A DNA stretch of 40,712 nucleotides from a virus (taxonomy: Duplodnaviria; Caudoviricetes), in IMG/VR virus record IMGVR_UViG_3300013738_000002, positions 1-40,712 of that record. One strand, written 5' to 3'. Shown here in pieces: positions 1-19,782 of the stretch (the stretch's first letter is position 1; every line of letters begins with the position of its first letter). Position numbers and translations under genes: made by a program. The notes under the pieces are model-generated. The model had not been told where the DNA came from and did not search any database. It was given only the letters and a program-made list of their open reading frames with translations.

Positions 1-127
1 CACCGTCTCGTAATCGACTGAAGCGCCTGGCGTTGCCGTCAGGTAACCCTGCTGCTCCCACACGTCATAGGGCGCGCGGTCACGCAGCGCCCGGTCTTTC
101 AGGCCGACCAGCGGCGCAAAGAACTCG
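1..127. repeat. 127-bp terminal direct repeat, left copy (circular-assembly overlap)
   Basis: 1-127 is identical to 40586-40712; it lies inside terL, whose frame continues across the join. Confidence 0.97.
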
Positions 128-1137
128 GCCTGCACGTGCCATTTCCGTTCCTCGTCGACGGCCGCGACGACCAGCGCCGTCAAGTCGTTTCGTGCCGACA
201 AGTCCAGCCCGATATAGCATCGCCCGTAGGCAATGGAGGCGAAATCCGGCTCCGCGCTGTTCTTCACCCAGATGGCGCGCGGGATAAACGGGCTGGTCTG
301 GCTGATCCGCTGGTTCAGGATCAGATTTCGGTAATTCGCCTCGCGCGATGGCATACGGCGCGCGGATTCGGCCTGGCTGCGCACTTCCTCCTTGTTCATG
401 AAGGCGTCGAAGTGCGGATTCGCCGCCTTGATGGCCTTCTCTGAGAACGGATCCAGCTCAAGTGGCGCGGTGTATAGCGCAATCTTGACCCGAGGATCCG
501 CCCCAGTCAGCGCATCGTCGATCAGCACCGACAGCAAGTCGGCATCGGTAGGCGCCTGGGTGCTGATGATGATCGAAAGCGGGTTCTCGTGGGCCGCCGA
601 GGCGGTTTCCAGCGCTTCGTAAAGCTCGTCGCGCGGCCCTTTCACCTGGCCGAGCTCGTCGTGCACCACGAATGCCGGCGATAGGCCGTAGGCCGTCGAT
701 GCATCCGCCGAGAGCGCACGGTATAGGGTGCCCAACTCGGGGCAAAACAACTGCTTTGCCGTGTCGCGCACCACAACGTACTGCGACAGGTCCGGCGACA
801 TGCGCGCCACCTTGGAGGCATAGCCGAACAAGATCGCAGCTTGCTCCCGCGACCGCGCTGCGCTATACAACTGACTGTTCGGAACCGCCTCCGGCCCGCA
901 CAGATGGAGTAGCAGCAGGAACGCCGAGAGCGCCGTCTTCGCGTTCTTCCGCGCCATGGACAGAATGAAGCGGCGCGTCGGCGAGTCGTAGATCTGCTTG
1001 ACCCATCTTCGCTGCTCGCGGGTCAGTACCACAGGCTTCCCGACCAGCTTGCCCTCGGGGATCCTGCAATGTGCCTCGATCCACGCGATATTGCGGGCGC
1101 CGCGGCTCGCTACCCTTTTGCGAGGGGCAGTTCCCAC
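1..1137 (-). CDS. terL: Terminase large subunit, N-terminal part (continues at 40585..40181; about 513 aa in total)
   Basis: Manual translation from GTG 1137: ...NIAWIEAHCRIPEGKLVGKP...FILSMARKNAKT (Walker A)...VVHDELG (Walker B); in frame with ORF 40181..40648; missed by the ORF track because of the window edge. Confidence 0.93.
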   Translation of the reverse strand, partial: MGTAPRKRVASRGARNIAWIEAHCRIPEGKLVGKPVVLTREQRRWVKQIYDSPTRRFILSMARKNAKTALSAFLLLLHLCGPEAVPNSQLYSAARSREQAAILFGYASKVARMSPDLSQYVVVRDTAKQLFCPELGTLYRALSADASTAYGLSPAFVVHDELGQVKGPRDELYEALETASAAHENPLSIIISTQAPTDADLLSVLIDDALTGADPRVKIALYTAPLELDPFSEKAIKAANPHFDAFMNKEEVRSQAESARRMPSREANYRNLILNQRISQTSPFIPRAIWVKNSAEPDFASIAYGRCYIGLDLSARNDLTALVVAAVDEERKWHVQAEFFAPLVGLKDRALRDRAPYDVWEQQGYLTATPGASVDYETV

Positions 1138-1562
1138 GGTTTTCTCGCCTTTGCCTGGCTCGCCAACTTGCGGCCGACCGTGGTCGGGTGCTCGACAGCC
1201 TGGCGCGTGATGCGCAGGCGCGTCGCCAGTGACGATGCCGCCCGGCTTTCGCGCTCAGCCATTGCCAACAGCCGGTCGTACCGCTTCAGGCCATCATCGT
1301 CGGCCAGCCAGGCACGATCGAAGTTCGCCATTTCGTCGGCGAGGATGCGAGCCTGAACGACGTGCCGGCAGTACAGCTCGAGCAACGGCGCGTGCGTCGC
1401 GCTGAAAACGCCGGCGGGCTGGTCATTCACCACCTCGAGCCAAACGCACCGCTCGGCATCGCTGATATGCAGAGGCGGCGCTAGGCGCTGTTCCGCCTCG
1501 ATGGGCGCAACGAGGGCCGCGACAGCCTGGGAAGCCGCCGATTTTCTGCCTCGCTGCGCCAT
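1110..1562 (-). CDS. terS: Terminase small subunit (P27/HK97-like)
   Basis: MAQRGRKS...PPLHIS...W...LLELYC...LATRLRITRQ; immediately upstream of terL. Confidence 0.88.
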   Translation of the reverse strand: MAQRGRKSAASQAVAALVAPIEAEQRLAPPLHISDAERCVWLEVVNDQPAGVFSATHAPLLELYCRHVVQARILADEMANFDRAWLADDDGLKRYDRLLAMAERESRAASSLATRLRITRQAVEHPTTVGRKLASQAKARKPWELPLAKG

Positions 1563-1599
1563 TTTTTGCCTCGCTTTGCCCTTTTTTGTCCACGTTTAT

Positions 1600-1665
1600 G
1601 GTTTCAAGGGAGACCGGTCGGTGTCCCGCGCCGCACCATCAGAGATGTGACGCCCCCTACCCTTT
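1600..1665 (-). other. Probable cos/packaging-initiation region
   Basis: Non-coding gap between HNH and terS with GGGTAGGGGGCGTCACATCTCTG, the G-run motif typical of HK97-like cos regions. Confidence 0.55.
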
Positions 1666-1702
1666 ACGCCTGTCTCGGCACGCCGCACGCGCCGAATGTG
1701 GC

Positions 1703-2002
1703 TCAATCTGCATTCCAATAGTGCGTCGGGCTGGTCGGTAGGCCGCTTGCATCACACCCGGACCGCTCGCGATAGCCCAAGTCACGCCGAGTCTTCTCGG
1801 TATGGCAGTCATCGCACAGGCCTTGCCTATTGGCCAGGTCATCGGCGCCGCCATTCACCAGCGCGACCACGTGATCGACCTCAGTAGCCGGCGTCACGAC
1901 GCCGCGCTTCTGGCACTTGACGCAAAGCGGATTCGCGGTCAGCGTGATCGCGTTCATCTCTTTGCGCTTTCGGCCGCGGATACGCTTGACGGGCTCGCGC
2001 AC
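1703..2002 (-). CDS. HNH endonuclease (terminase-associated, HK97 gp74-like)
   Basis: PLCVKC...ATEVDHVVALVNGGAD...NRQGLCDDCHTEKT; position upstream of cos/terS; GTG start overlaps the upstream stop. Confidence 0.9.
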   Translation of the reverse strand: MREPVKRIRGRKRKEMNAITLTANPLCVKCQKRGVVTPATEVDHVVALVNGGADDLANRQGLCDDCHTEKTRRDLGYRERSGCDASGLPTSPTHYWNAD

Positions 2003-2160
2003 TACTCGACCTTGATGCGCATCGCACGCTTGATGACGCGCTCGAGCTTGGCCTGATCTGGGACGCGGTTGGACAGCACAGCACAAAGCACCAAGATCGC
2101 CAGATATGGCTTGAGCCACCAAGCCACCTCTACTTTGAGCTGGACGTCGTACTTAGGCAT
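2002..2160 (-). CDS. Small hypothetical protein (52 aa) with a hydrophobic segment
   Basis: MPKYDVQLKVEVAWWLKPYLAILVLCAVL...; overlaps both neighbours. Confidence 0.65.
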   Translation of the reverse strand: MPKYDVQLKVEVAWWLKPYLAILVLCAVLSNRVPDQAKLERVIKRAMRIKVE

Positions 2161-2248
2161 ACGTCGCGCGCGCGCTTGGGCGCACGCCAAAGCAGGCGGC
2201 GACAGCAATGCCAGCGACAATGGAACAAAGGATCCAGATGTACATCAT
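2153..2248 (-). CDS. 31-aa hydrophobic peptide, first ORF of the late operon
   Basis: GAGGTG RBS then MMYIWILCSIVAGIAVAACFGVRPSARATYA*; overlaps the next start; below the ORF-track cutoff. Confidence 0.5.
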   Translation of the reverse strand: MMYIWILCSIVAGIAVAACFGVRPSARATYA

Positions 2249-2264
2249 CGTCGCCACCTCAAAT

Positions 2265-2322
2265 AGAAAAAGCCCGCGGGGTTAATGCGGGCAAAGGCCA
2301 GGCGGGGGCCTGGAGGAGACAC
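2265..2322 (-). ncRNA. Candidate anti-Shine-Dalgarno sRNA (resembles Betaproteobacteria toxic sRNAs), including its terminator
   Basis: GTGTCTCCTCCA + hairpin CCAGGC-CCCC-GCCTGG + terminator GCCCGC..GCGGGC-TTTTT. Confidence 0.5.
2267..2292 (-). terminator. Rho-independent terminator
   Basis: GCCCGC-ATTAACCCC-GCGGGC followed by TTTTT. Confidence 0.8.
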
Positions 2323-2395
2323 TGGTTGCGGCACCTGGAGTCGTCACCAGGAACCTCGGGCAGAAGCCCGCGCGCTACTGTTGCGCCATGCCGCA
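2323..2395 (-). ncRNA. tRNA-like RNA or pseudo-tRNA with a 4-nt anticodon loop
   Basis: TGCGGCA/TGCCGCA acceptor stem + A-CCA; D stem GCGC/GCGC; stem CGGGC-TTCT-GCCCG; variable loop AGGTT; T stem CCTGG-TGACGACT-CCAGG. Confidence 0.8.
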
Positions 2396-2402
2396 GAAAT
2401 GC

Positions 2403-2425
2403 AAAAAGCCCGCATGTGCGGGCTT
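2403..2425 (-). terminator. Rho-independent terminator just after the late promoter (tR'-like)
   Basis: AAGCCCGC-ACAT-GCGGGC-TTTTT. Confidence 0.85.
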
Positions 2426-2460
2426 AGGGCGAACTTCGGTACGGTATCGAATTGACGCGT

Positions 2461-2489
2461 ATTTTAGGCATGTTTTGCACAGAGGTCAA
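2461..2489 (-). promoter_or_regulatory. Late promoter (pR'-like, sigma70)
   Basis: TTGACC-N17-TAAAAT directly downstream of the Q-like gene and upstream of a terminator. Confidence 0.8.
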
Positions 2490-2504
2490 AAAGTTGACAG
2501 TTGC

Positions 2505-3080
2505 CTATGCAATCGCGCCCTCGGCAAGGATCATTCCGCGCTCGTCGACGGCCACGTCGAACGCTTCGAAAGCCCTGTGTTCCAAGCCCTTGAGCACTTT
2601 CACGATGGCCTGATTGTGCGCGCTGACCGTGTTGCGATTGACGCCACAGGATTCCGCAAGCTCGGTCAGTTTTACCTTTGCGCCGAAGAATCGCTGGACG
2701 CATCCGCTTCGCACCCGGTAGTGCGACAGTGTTCCACTGAGCGCCACGATTACATGCTCGGTCAGTTCGCTAATGGCTTCGCGCCAATCCGGGTTGGCTC
2801 GATAGCCGGCGCAGCACGGAGATCTGCATTCGCAGCGCAACACGCGCGGCGCGCATCTCGCAACCAGCACGGCGCGCTCGATCGGGGTGAGTTTCTGCAG
2901 CTCGGCCAGAACCATCCCGGCCTGCGCGGCACCGTCTAGGCCGACCAAGCCTCGGCCGCTGCCGACGCCACTGCCTTTGACCATCTTGGCCATCGGCGAT
3001 AGCGCGTATTGCTGGATGGAATAGTTCAGCGAGAACACCAGCGCCTCGCGCGAGTGCTTGAAAATCCCCGGTTCTTTCAC
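2505..3080 (-). CDS. Late transcription regulator / antiterminator (Q-like)
   Basis: Last gene of the early operon before promoter+terminator; Cys cluster CECRSPCC and C-terminal HTH (LTELAESCGVNRNTVS). Confidence 0.7.
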   Translation of the reverse strand: MKEPGIFKHSREALVFSLNYSIQQYALSPMAKMVKGSGVGSGRGLVGLDGAAQAGMVLAELQKLTPIERAVLVARCAPRVLRCECRSPCCAGYRANPDWREAISELTEHVIVALSGTLSHYRVRSGCVQRFFGAKVKLTELAESCGVNRNTVSAHNQAIVKVLKGLEHRAFEAFDVAVDERGMILAEGAIA

Positions 3081-3382
3081 AGTCGTCCCCCGTTAAGCAG
3101 CGCGATCGCCGCGTCAAGCAGATCCAGTTCCGTCATTTTTAGGATCCGCAAATAAGTCTTTTCCCCATGAACCCCGTTTCTGCCTTGGTGGCAGTCATCG
3201 TGGCAAAGCGGCAGCACCAGATAGTTGCCCGCCCGCTGCTGGCCGCCCTGCCCTTCGCGGATGTGGTGCACATCGGTAACAGATTCCTGGCTTCGGCCGA
3301 GTAGCGTGCAGCAGATGCAGGCCATTTCCTTGACCCGGCCCATGTAGGCAAATTCGGCCTTGGTCGGCGCCTTCTTGCTCAA
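3077..3382 (-). CDS. Ref/DUF968-like Zn-binding HNH-fold nuclease
   Basis: ACICC...DVHHIREGQG...VLPLCHDDCHQG. Confidence 0.7.
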   Translation of the reverse strand: MSKKAPTKAEFAYMGRVKEMACICCTLLGRSQESVTDVHHIREGQGGQQRAGNYLVLPLCHDDCHQGRNGVHGEKTYLRILKMTELDLLDAAIALLNGGRL

Positions 3383-3816
3383 GTCGTCTCCCCCGAGATC
3401 AAACCCGGCTGCTGCGGATCCAAAGGTTCCACCACGATCTCGGCTCGTGGATTGGCGCGATCGATGCCGTGATAGACGTGCTTTTCCCGCACCTGGCGAT
3501 CATTGGCATAGACGCCGCGCTGCACGAGCCGGCGCAGATCGCCCTTTCCGGCGTATTGAGCCTGCAGGACGTCCAGCAGCACCGATTCATCCAGGTCCGG
3601 GCGCTCGGTGGCATAGAACAGGCGCATGGTCACCCGCACCGGGCCCTCGAGCATCTGGCGCGCCGCCGGCGGGATCTGGCGCATTGCGTCGCGGGCGAAC
3701 TTCCGGGCCTTTTCCGACTTGATGCTGGCCGGTCTCCCATTGAGAGTGACGATCTTCCGGCTGTTGGCCTTGCTGGCGGCTTCGCCCAAGATGGTGAAGG
3801 CGATCTGGGTCGTCAT
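3379..3816 (-). CDS. rusA: RusA-family Holliday junction resolvase
   Basis: SKANSR...RPDLDES..LDVLQ...YANDRQV...NPRAEIVV; ATGA-coupled start at 3816. Confidence 0.8.
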   Translation of the reverse strand: MTTQIAFTILGEAASKANSRKIVTLNGRPASIKSEKARKFARDAMRQIPPAARQMLEGPVRVTMRLFYATERPDLDESVLLDVLQAQYAGKGDLRRLVQRGVYANDRQVREKHVYHGIDRANPRAEIVVEPLDPQQPGLISGETT

Positions 3817-4079
3817 GCCGCATGCCTCCGCCGTGCAGCAAACCATCCGCACCGCGCGCTCTTTTCGTCCATCCACTGGCAAGGCGCGACATCGGTCGGC
3901 CAGGTCGGCGTGCGCCACCAGGTCTCAAAGGCCTGCCAAGCCTCGGCCCGGCGGGCGGCCTCACCAGCAATGGCCCAGTCGCACTTTCTCGCCTCGAGGC
4001 GCCGGACGCCGTCGTCATCGCCGCAGTCGTTCAGGCAGTCACAGTTTCGCGGTTGCCTTGGCGCGGTCTGGCAGGTCAT
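3813..4079 (-). CDS. Cys-rich hypothetical protein
   Basis: 88 aa, ATGA coupling on both sides. Confidence 0.7.
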   Translation of the reverse strand: MTCQTAPRQPRNCDCLNDCGDDDGVRRLEARKCDWAIAGEAARRAEAWQAFETWWRTPTWPTDVAPCQWMDEKSARCGWFAARRRHAA

Positions 4080-4447
4080 GCGACCACCTCAGCAATCTCC
4101 GCAGCAGCACGCACGATGGCTCGACGCACAGCCTCCGCCCTGCCGGCATCGCCCTTGCCGGCTACCTTCTCGCTTGCGCCGTCAAGCCCTTGGGCTCCGC
4201 TGTACCAGCGTCCGACAGCCATCTGGCCGTCGACGAAGAAGATGCACAGACCCAGCCTTACCGCCAGCCGCAGTGCGTCGCCGTCATCCGTAAGGGGCCC
4301 ATACTGGCGCCATTGGCCGCCCTGCTCTCGGACGTGGATCACGACCAGGTCACGGGCGCGGTACCGGCGAACCTCAAACCCGGCAGCACGAGCGGCCTTT
4401 TCCGTGAGATCGAGATCCCCGGCGGATGGGATGGTCGGCCCGGTCAT
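4076..4447 (-). CDS. Hypothetical protein (123 aa)
   Basis: MTGPTIPS...GPLTDDGDALRLAVRLGL...RRAIVRAAAEI, a common phage motif; ATGA-coupled. Confidence 0.75.
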   Translation of the reverse strand: MTGPTIPSAGDLDLTEKAARAAGFEVRRYRARDLVVIHVREQGGQWRQYGPLTDDGDALRLAVRLGLCIFFVDGQMAVGRWYSGAQGLDGASEKVAGKGDAGRAEAVRRAIVRAAAEIAEVVA

Positions 4448-4719
4448 ATGCCACCTTCCTTGCTGGCTCGCCGCGTGCGCAGAATCTCGACCAAGCCGGC
4501 CCGGTCTATCTCGACGGCGCCGAACCTGAGCGCGAGCGCCCGCTTGCTCTTTGCGATGTCGAAGTGTTCGTGGTGCGTGCCGGCCTTCTGTATCCACTTC
4601 CGCTGCACGCCGATCTTGTCAGCCATGACCAGCAGTTCCTCAGTGGAGTCGGCGAGCATGTGGCACATCACCATGCGGCCGAAGCTGGCTTCCATGTCGT
4701 CAACGTAGACCGCCATCAC
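4444..4719 (-). CDS. DUF4031 family protein
   Basis: VYVDD...MCHMLADSTEEL...A.KIG...WIQ...HFDI..SKR..AL..GA. Confidence 0.85.
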   Translation of the reverse strand: MMAVYVDDMEASFGRMVMCHMLADSTEELLVMADKIGVQRKWIQKAGTHHEHFDIAKSKRALALRFGAVEIDRAGLVEILRTRRASKEGGI

Positions 4720-5729
4720 TCCCCCTTCTCTGCGTTGGGCGCCTCCGCACGCGGGGACGAGGCTCTGGAGAGGATGGTATTTGCAAACCGCGTGATGTAA
4801 TGCGTTGCGGCGGAATCGCTGTAGTCAGTTACCCGATTCCAGATGTCTGTCGCCTCAGCAAACGACATGGAAATCCGCGTCGCTGATGCTGCATACGATA
4901 GGGCCGCTTTCCATGCCGCAAGAGCGACACCCTCATCATGTTGGGTGAATCCGCTTGTGTCGTCTAGCCACTGTTCAAATGCCTTTCGCTCCGACAGCGC
5001 GCCTTGCTGCCGGGATGGCGCAGGCTCTGCCGGGGTGGCGGATTGCTCGGCTAGTACGGACTGCAATCGGTCGATTTCTGCGGCTGCATCACGTGGGTTC
5101 TCGTAGCACCACGTCCAGTCGGTTTCCGCCTGCGCTTCGGGGTTTCGGAATCCTTCGGACAGCATCGCAAAGCGTGTGTCGCGCCTAGCGTCCGCATATC
5201 CACGCTCATAGTCGGAAGATTCCCCCGTCGCAGCAGGTGGCGGCGCAGGGTCTGCGGGCTTATCGTCAAAACTGACCGGCCCAGGCTCCTTGCTGCCGCC
5301 GTAATACACCATTGTCTCTGCGGGCTGGGCGGCGAGTAGGCGAAGATCGTTGGCGATGCACTCTACCTTGGCATCCGTGACGTGCGCCATGTAAGAGCGC
5401 AGGATTTGACCCACCGATTCATTGCTCAGCGCGGCAGGCGATGCCGGCGCAGGAGCGGCGATCAGCCTATCCCGCGCAGCCGACAACTCCACCGTCAGAT
5501 GCGCGATCACCTGCGACGGCGTATAGCCTGCCACCTCGGGGCATACGGTCGCGGCGATGGCGATCTCGCGCCGGGTGGAGGCGGATTGGTTGGTGCTAAC
5601 GCAATCAGCAAAGCGCCCAAGCGCTGCATCCCATGCGTTCGTGCCAGGCGTAGCACCCATCAGGCCGCAGTCGCGCGCTAGGTTCCAGTCTTCGTCCCGG
5701 CACTGCGCCGGGGTGGTCGATTCGCTCAT
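4716..5729 (-). CDS. Hypothetical mosaic nin-region protein (337 aa)
   Basis: Long ORF, coupled on both sides, Ala/Pro linkers. Confidence 0.75.
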   Translation of the reverse strand: MSESTTPAQCRDEDWNLARDCGLMGATPGTNAWDAALGRFADCVSTNQSASTRREIAIAATVCPEVAGYTPSQVIAHLTVELSAARDRLIAAPAPASPAALSNESVGQILRSYMAHVTDAKVECIANDLRLLAAQPAETMVYYGGSKEPGPVSFDDKPADPAPPPAATGESSDYERGYADARRDTRFAMLSEGFRNPEAQAETDWTWCYENPRDAAAEIDRLQSVLAEQSATPAEPAPSRQQGALSERKAFEQWLDDTSGFTQHDEGVALAAWKAALSYAASATRISMSFAEATDIWNRVTDYSDSAATHYITRFANTILSRASSPRAEAPNAEKGE

Positions 5730-9474: not shown

Positions 9475-9583
9475 TGTCTCTCCAGAGTTGTTCTGGGGCA
9501 TTGAAGGCAAAAAGCGGGCAATAATCAGGGGCGACTTTGGGGTCAATTCACACCCCTTTCACACCCCAATTCACGCCCTTTTC

Positions 9584-19733: not shown

Positions 19734-19782
19734 CTGATTTGGGATCAGAGGGTCGCATGTTCGAATCATGTCGCCCCGACCA
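19734..19782 (+). mobile_element. attP core: 3' half of tRNA-Pro(TGG)
   Basis: CTGA-TTTGGGA-TCAG anticodon arm, GCATG-TTCGAAT-CATGT T arm, CGCCCCG-ACCA; 5' half absent. Confidence 0.9.

Follow-up and report, generated by a model that had tools for sequence, protein, structure and literature searches.

A tRNA-Met-derived cloverleaf without an anticodon in the late leader of a lambdoid siphophage, and its possible role as a processing mark for a predicted double-hairpin RNA

Why should a phage carry, at the head of its late genes, an RNA gene with the four stems and the encoded CCA end of a tRNA and no anticodon? The element in question occupies nt 2323–2395 on the minus strand of IMG/VR record IMGVR_UViG_3300013738_000002, which was analysed over its whole length of 40,712 bases (the window). 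The record is that of a lambdoid siphophage, with terminase, portal, capsid, tail, endolysin, integrase and O/P-like replication genes, and homologs of the integrase and antiterminator point to a host within the Burkholderiales. Read along the minus strand, the late leader begins with a 191 aa gene, followed by a promoter, a terminator, the cloverleaf, a double-hairpin element (the module), small ORFs, and then the HNH and terminase genes:

2505..3080, minus strand: predicted AlpA/Q-like processive antiterminator gene, 191 aa (profile and AF2/Foldseek matches)
2461..2489, minus strand: sigma-70-type late promoter, pR'-like (10/12 consensus match)
2396..2425, minus strand: first intrinsic terminator, tR'-like, stem 2425–2406 and U-tract (8 bp stem and T-run)
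2323..2395, minus strand: tRNA-Met-derived cloverleaf, 73 nt (fold, descriptor search, comparison with intact relatives)
2264..2321, minus strand: RF02278-like double-hairpin RNA (cmscan and fold)
2153..2248, minus strand: first late ORF, 31 aa, hydrophobic (sequence), followed by a 52 aa ORF and the HNH and terminase genes (downstream genes via PHROGs)

The late promoter is the only such match within nt 1–5000 (chance expectation 0.8), and we infer a late transcript start site at about nt 2454. The promoter-leader-terminator arrangement is alike in many AlpA-family relatives, where the tR' hairpin is again found 3' of the antiterminator gene. The original prediction had the cloverleaf bracketed by two terminators; the first of these is borne out by its 8 bp stem and T-run, while the second is the 3' hairpin of the RF02278-like RNA. 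The first late ORF gave no Pfam match, and a similar ORF also lies 3' of the module in the closest relatives (L443/L444). Two further features were observed across AlpA-family phages, a TGTGCA-type near-palindrome in the promoter spacer (nt 2489–2440, minus strand; many of loci L001–L080) and a conserved TTCGATA-like motif in the first transcribed bases. They are candidates for an antiterminator binding element and a pause signal.

The product of the 191 aa gene (nt 3080–2505) is likely to have a Q-like role, because its fold and profile resemble those of AlpA of Pseudomonas aeruginosa, a processive antiterminator that binds between the −35 and −10 elements (PMC7969949). A profile of 67 sequences matched AlpA (7xya) with E = 3.6e-4, and the AF2 model (pLDDT 88.7) returned 7xyb/7xya as the top Foldseek matches (probability 1.00, TM 0.55–0.66, E = 1.8e-3). 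A match to sigma70_r4 was weak and below the cut-off, and the PHROG search gave no match. A promoter closely trailed by terminators is also common to the two systems, whereas the proteins share 13–15% identity and their likeness is known here from sequence and model. Since the upstream gene is AlpA-like, it is plausible, as first proposed, that the cloverleaf RNA is made only under antitermination. In the cultured phages Bcep176, PHB09 and CF418P1, which carry an antiterminator homolog, no module was present in the ~250 bases read 3' of the gene.

The sequence, coordinates, 7+4+5+5 stems and encoded CCA of the cloverleaf are as originally described. The minimum-energy and centroid folds of nt 2395–2323 are both this cloverleaf (−35.5 kcal/mol, z = −2.08), and 7 of 200 shuffled sequences folded as stably. 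Its parts are as follows:

2395–2389/2333–2327, minus strand: acceptor stem, 7 bp
2386–2372, minus strand: D arm, G18 changed to A at 2379
2370–2357, minus strand: shortened anticodon arm, 4 nt loop, no CAU
2351–2334, minus strand: T arm, 8 nt loop, U55 changed to G at 2345
2326–2323, minus strand: encoded ACCA end (sequence)

Descriptor searches, strict or relaxed, returned it as the sole CCA-ended cloverleaf in the 40.7 kb genome, and 60 dinucleotide shuffles of the genome gave none by the strict and seven by the relaxed descriptor. A contig from run X1 (depth ~102, possibly the same source) is identical at all 73 bases, which rules out an assembly artefact, and has two differences elsewhere across 1.2 kb. 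The cloverleaf is confirmed as real. The X1 differences are at nt 2277 and 2180; the one at 2277 removes one of the 6 pairs of the second terminator stem, leaving 5.

A pseudo or undetermined tRNA call had been expected, and this was the outcome: at default settings ARAGORN made no tRNA call at nt 2323–2395, at a lowered threshold it labelled the element 'tRNA-???', and the Rfam tRNA model (RF00005) gave no match to it at E ≤ 1. Among canonical tRNA features, the 7/4/5/5 bp stems and CCA end are present, and the 7 nt anticodon loop with its anticodon, the complete G18G19 and U54U55C56 motifs, the Rfam gathering score and the default ARAGORN call are absent. Initiator tRNA-fMet is marked by a CAU anticodon, an unpaired 1:72, A11:U24 and three G-C pairs in the anticodon stem; the cloverleaf has the anticodon-stem G-C run only, with U-A at 1:72, C-G at 11:24 and no CAU. 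A tRNA remnant at attP is ruled out, the cloverleaf being whole-length and 16 kb from the integrase. A tRNA 3' half (anticodon TGG, read as Pro, with T arm and CCA) was seen at about nt 19,735–19,782 on the plus strand, directly 3' of the integrase gene and followed by a two-way terminator-like hairpin, and is likely to be attP.

Comparison of the bases with those of related phages shows that the cloverleaf descends from a phage tRNA-Met(CAU). In the intact relative L126, the acceptor, D and T stems are identical to those of the cloverleaf, with no differences over 32 stem bases. Counted against the nearest of 30 intact copies, there are at least one edit in the D loop, six in the anticodon arm and three in the T loop, and the 4 nt anticodon loop is at least three edits from every loop in these relatives. 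Seventeen intact copies of 75 nt have 40 positions conserved at 90% or more, of which the cloverleaf keeps 35; it lacks G18, U55 and three bases of the anticodon loop. G18 and U55 are the partners of one contact (18-55), changed on both sides, and neither A18 nor G55 occurs in any of 32 relatives. Apart from 18-55, the other ten tertiary contacts or positions scored occur in intact relatives. G19, U54, C56 and A58 are kept, and the states of 8-14-21, 9-12-23, 10-25-45, 13-22-46, 15-48, 26-44, 19-56, 54-58 and 53-61 are all seen in intact copies, T-loop positions being counted from the 3' end with one base taken as inserted. The elbow features, which were thought to be lost, are thus half kept, since 18-55 is the only elbow contact changed: G18·U55 is gone, but G19-C56, U54-A58, G53-C61 and the core triples remain.

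Simple decay would, according to the original prediction, be reflected in homologs that are mostly normal tRNAs with random stem mismatches. The homologs are mostly normal, 32 distinct CAU tRNAs having been parsed from all fetched loci (anticodon and TTC were required by the parse and so are present by construction), but stem decay is rare: 19 have no stem mismatch, 12 have one and a single tRNA has four, so that 1 of 32 in a set parsed for an intact anticodon exceeds one mismatch. Several other anticodon-less remnants share the slot of the cloverleaf. The chance that four to seven random events would spare all 32 acceptor, D and T stem bases is 0.11–0.02, a rough, after-the-fact figure. These odds are suggestive of selection, for a feature that was picked for its perfect stems and is known from few events and a single copy. 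The claim that shape was kept rather than translation therefore holds as a description of the pattern (35 of 40 positions, stems as in L126), but as a statement about selection it draws on few events in one copy, judged post hoc.

Altered anticodon loops (U32, C38, in place of the common C32/A38) were seen in 9 of the 30 intact phage tRNA-Met copies, for example L083, L118, L125 and L126. They are possibly an escape from anticodon nucleases, as is known for anticodon-loop changes in phage tRNAs (PMC10264068). Such escape tRNAs keep decoding whereas the cloverleaf does not, and the suggestion that it is itself a decoy for anticodon nucleases is unlikely, as the loop that these nucleases need is lost.

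The RNA that borders the cloverleaf offers another approach to its role. The encoded CCA ends at nt 2323 and, 2 nt away, an RF02278-like RNA starts at nt 2321. The cmscan match (nt 2321–2264, minus strand) covers the full model (1–64) with 30.9 bits and E = 0.0028, below the gathering score of 50, and homologous modules in relatives reach 38.6 bits (the best among 16 loci scanned). The 5' CU-rich anti-RBS run, two hairpins and U-tail of an RF02278-type small RNA are all present, as a single-stranded anti-Shine-Dalgarno (anti-SD) run at 2321–2312, hairpin 1 at 2313–2298 and a terminator hairpin at 2292–2272 before the U-tail. Double-hairpin RNAs of Burkholderia cenocepacia are predicted to cover ribosome-binding sites (PMC5688073, PMC4603805, PMC7011215), and one of them, the chromosomal ncS27, is processed at its 5' end to a short form and slows growth when overexpressed (PMC5688073). 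A literature search of open-access full text returned no account of double-hairpin RNAs carried by phages, nor of tRNA remnants placed before such RNAs.

Within the phage, the anti-SD seed is predicted to pair best with the ribosome-binding sites of a 101 aa nuclease gene (−18.8 kcal/mol), rusA (−16.2 kcal/mol) and the antiterminator gene (−14.1 kcal/mol), the last ranking fourth as a target, behind ORF 32982. Self-targeting feedback as a conserved feature was considered and rejected, as the pairing of relatives' ribosome-binding sites gives it no support. Pairing at the antiterminator site is equal in loci with and without the module (20 versus 41 loci, p = 0.87), and the nuclease site of the closest relatives pairs with the seed at −11.4 only.

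Among the three roles first proposed for the cloverleaf (a processing signal, a decoy for defences that target tRNAs, and a synthetase or EF-Tu sponge), a processing signal fares best and gains in the RF02278-like RNA a likely cargo that had been missed; we give it slightly less than an even chance. The cloverleaf would be a tRNA-shaped cutting mark that releases the adjacent predicted anti-SD small RNA from the late transcript, a reading we hold tentatively, as one that is about as apt to fail as to stand. It was adopted because what decoding and MetRS require is gone from the cloverleaf, while the features read by RNase P are retained. The bacterial enzyme measures the 12 bp acceptor/T helix, base-pairs with RCCA and stacks on the T-stem-loop, and interference is seen at G19, G53 and A58; hairpin substrates without D and anticodon arms are cut as well, and tetraloops that replace the T loop lower and shift cleavage (PMC11143913). 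The 12 bp acceptor/T helix, RCCA and G19/G53/A58 are all kept in the cloverleaf. Since tetraloops in this position reduce and shift cleavage, its altered T loop could weaken the mark. RNase P prefers G+1. At the predicted site N-1 is C and N+1 is U, as in the intact relatives, and a preference for U-1 has been described, as has the processing of phage regulatory RNAs by this enzyme (PMC4919922).

The proposed sequence of events would start with the AlpA-like protein, or leak through tR', taking RNA polymerase beyond the first terminator. The 5' end of the cloverleaf would then be cleaved by RNase P, and the cut just 3' of the CCA would probably be made by RNase E, the usual endonuclease for that step in proteobacteria. 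These cuts would free an RNA of ~60 nt whose 5' CU-rich run would pair with ribosome-binding sites, probably those of host mRNAs, and so damp translation; the freed cloverleaf would be an uncharged by-product. Leaky transcription in lysogens or partial termination upon induction may each be the source of the small RNA. With the leader removed, folding predictions give 0.90 rather than 0.52 for the acceptor helix and 0.75 rather than 0.48 for the accessibility of the seed. A more general version, which we consider rather unlikely as it stands, is that Burkholderiales temperate phages use a tRNA-Met gene and its stripped-down descendants as a launcher, host tRNA-processing enzymes cutting the tRNA shape and thereby freeing a phage-borne double-hairpin anti-SD RNA at the onset of late transcription; the window element would be an intermediate with decoding removed and only the cutting handle kept. 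Elsewhere in the window, an 88 aa early ORF (nt 9546–9280, minus strand) gave a sub-threshold Pfam match to the ribosome modulation factor RMF (E = 2.9e-5, 24.5 bits against a cut-off of 27.9), and is possibly a second handle on host translation.

Among the observations that count against a processing mark are that the variant is known from a single copy and that the closest relatives have lost most of the cloverleaf. The tRNA mark is also dispensable in general for the module, since 26 of the 28 distinct double-hairpin modules in AlpA-family loci (n = 80) have no tRNA directly upstream, one having an intact tRNA-Met and one a remnant. By a loose motif test, 21 of 30 intact tRNA-Met relatives adjoin a module. 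Phage records, IMG/VR, metagenomes, genomes and family samples were searched for a second copy of the window's variant, and none of them yielded one. Among 50,697 phage records, blastn returned short chance or terminator matches only. An acceptor-family pattern in IMG/VR gave ten matches, all intact tRNAs, and a narrower pattern gave none; a shortened-spacing pattern in metagenomes gave 28 matches and no cloverleaf; the 13 matches of a genome scan comprised one intact tRNA, one remnant and 11 chance matches. Family samples gave matches in 5 of 401 and 2 of 301 genomes (three intact, one near-intact, the known remnant and two by chance), and a broad scan for ACCA plus module added nothing among 117 of ~900 stretches listed.

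In relatives the slot between tR' and the module holds an intact tRNA-Met (in most), another remnant, or nothing. The search patterns were anchored on the acceptor 3' strand and the module, so that the 3' acceptor strand of remnants was required by the pattern, and they returned mostly intact tRNA-Met and chance matches, plus the other remnants. In L033/L312, directly after tR' of an AlpA-family phage, the anticodon arm is deleted while GG and TTC are kept. L318/L381/L333 have a 75 nt span, a 7 bp acceptor and a D-stem-like hairpin, with a compensatory acceptor change (G7:C66 to A7:U66) in L318/L333. L427/L428/L435 have a 7 bp acceptor and a stacked 5 bp T-like stem under three different loops of 8–10 nt, and may form one lineage with the L318 group, as leader features are common to both. 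L313/L316/L339/L349 retain a 28 nt acceptor-like hairpin with one mismatch; this group includes the closest relatives found, G703 and G704 (82–87% identical in the replication region), and in it the antiterminator gene is gone, as are pR', tR' and the greater part of the cloverleaf. Only a tRNA 3' half is left in L287, and short acceptor-like hairpins follow tR' in L004, L013, L023–L026 and L035. The L033/L312, L427/L428/L435, L318/L333 and L313/L316/L339/L349 remnants each end in the acceptor 3' strand and ACC, and remnant ends are mostly ACCU or ACCG, not CCA. A stacked T-like stem is rare by chance, being present in 2 of 51 control clusters, one of them a real tRNA, whereas chance often supplies a 5' acceptor partner strand, which 13 of the 51 controls and 3 of 5 remnant lineages have (Fisher p = 0.13; the module/control split was curated by hand). 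When 120 nt of upstream sequence is included, the predicted probability of the acceptor helix is 0.0 in L318, L427, L428 and L435 and 0.30 in the window.

Some of these loci have further features of their own. In the G703/G704 proviruses (L443, L444) the AlpA-like gene is deleted after ~8 codons, and the packaging module differs from that of the window. L428 carries, ~100–200 bases upstream of its module, a further tRNA-like domain with a D arm and a canonical T arm, in which a long hairpin replaces the anticodon arm. This domain sits in a long closing stem whose 3' strand doubles as the 5' acceptor strand of the next element, possibly a two-state leader common to L427, L435 and L318. Directly after tR' in L075, and before a tRNA-Gly, lies a long and unusual tRNA-like sequence, whose D region is enlarged and whose variable arm is long.

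The series of remnants bears directly on the main rival, in which the cloverleaf is a tRNA-Met pseudogene of recent origin that no selection currently maintains. It would be one stage in an erosion that has recurred in the optional tRNA lying between tR' and the double-hairpin RNA, and its stems would be intact only for want of further events. This is quite possible, and nearly as likely as a processing mark; the singleton status, the fact that the tRNA is optional, and the erosion series are accounted for equally well. The variant is a single copy, erosion in the slot extends down to short acceptor-like hairpins and to nothing, the closest relatives have deleted the cloverleaf almost wholly, and odds of 0.11–0.02 of sparing the stems would often be met by a genome-wide scan that selects perfect stems. 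Less easily accommodated is that changes in three separate regions have spared every stem base, core triple and CCA base, that both partners of a single tertiary pair are altered, that a 5 bp arm with normal spacers was regenerated after a net loss of 3 nt, and that the L318/L333 remnants carry a compensatory acceptor change.

It is improbable that the uncut cloverleaf acts in cis as a folding insulator or stabiliser, preventing pairing between leader and anti-SD seed, or shielding the 5' end of the late transcript. Many remnants are a plain hairpin before the seed, and CCA is often altered to CCU or CCG, as would suit such a role; however, the predicted full-length transcript exposes the seed less (0.48) than does the transcript freed of its leader (0.75), and a plain hairpin needs no tertiary core, yet the core is kept here. 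Still less probable is a decoy role against host defences whose targets are the tails or acceptor stems of tRNAs. For Cas12a3, which cleaves CCA tails, an acceptor stem, a T arm and CCA suffice and the loops are not required (PMC12851939). The cloverleaf keeps all three and would be made in lytic growth, but one gene copy would face the entire host tRNA pool, and most of the other remnants in this slot are without CCA. It is very unlikely that the cloverleaf is a sponge for methionyl-tRNA synthetase, EF-Tu or IF2: the tRNA-Met acceptor stem, A73 and the three anticodon-stem G-C pairs are kept, but G3·U70 is absent, as is the CAU anticodon on which MetRS identity mainly rests, and EF-Tu and IF2 bind charged tRNA. 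A trigger of the stringent response is ruled out by inference, as RelA requires codon pairing in the A site.

If the processing reading is true, a phage tRNA gene would have turned from a part of translation into a signal by which a regulatory RNA is matured, and the forms that range from intact tRNA to a 28 nt hairpin would be its natural intermediates. The 'toxic' double-hairpin RNAs of RF02278 would also gain a phage context, look-alikes being found at the head of the late operon in many AlpA-family prophages. The natural A18/G55 pair, with G19-C56 kept, is a ready-made probe of the elbow contacts that RNase P needs. Should the cloverleaf be a pseudogene only, the phage-borne double-hairpin module would be the more interesting part.

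Set beside known systems, the cloverleaf is by its features not a canonical tRNA and, on the reading that we favour, would work like a tRNA-like processing signal, a class defined by cleavage. It has in common with the phage tRNA-Met(CAU) of betaproteobacterial temperate phages (RF00005; L126, L118, L112, L284) the acceptor, D and T stems (identical in L126), the core tertiary bases and the CCA end, and differs in having no anticodon (4 nt loop), G18 changed to A and an 8 nt T loop without UUC. Plant mitochondrial t-elements and mascRNA/menRNA are tRNA-like processing signals. As in these and in the hairpin substrates of RNase P (PMC11143913), a non-decoding tRNA shape borders another RNA and the features read by RNase P are kept, the fold here abutting the end of the RF02278-like RNA (CCA end at nt 2323, RNA start at nt 2321). 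It departs from the t-element or mascRNA type as an almost complete cloverleaf that stands 5' of a small RNA in the late leader of a phage, with cleavage that is so far a prediction. The module shares the 5' CU-rich anti-RBS run, two hairpins and U-tail (nt 2321–2264) with the toxic small RNAs or 'double-hairpin RNAs' of Betaproteobacteria (RF02278; PMC4603805, PMC5688073), and the 5' processing by which ncS27 is matured (PMC5688073) is proposed for it as well. RF02278 RNAs are intergenic chromosomal genes with their own start site, whereas the module is phage-borne, lies within a late operon and scores 30.9 bits against the cut-off of 50. A regulatory small RNA cut from an antiterminated late-promoter transcript, as proposed for the window module, has a precedent in StxS of Stx phages (PMC7547250). 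StxS, however, lies before tR', is made in lysogens and is excised by RNase E without a tRNA-like handle (PMC7547250), whereas the module of the window lies after tR', directly behind its cloverleaf.
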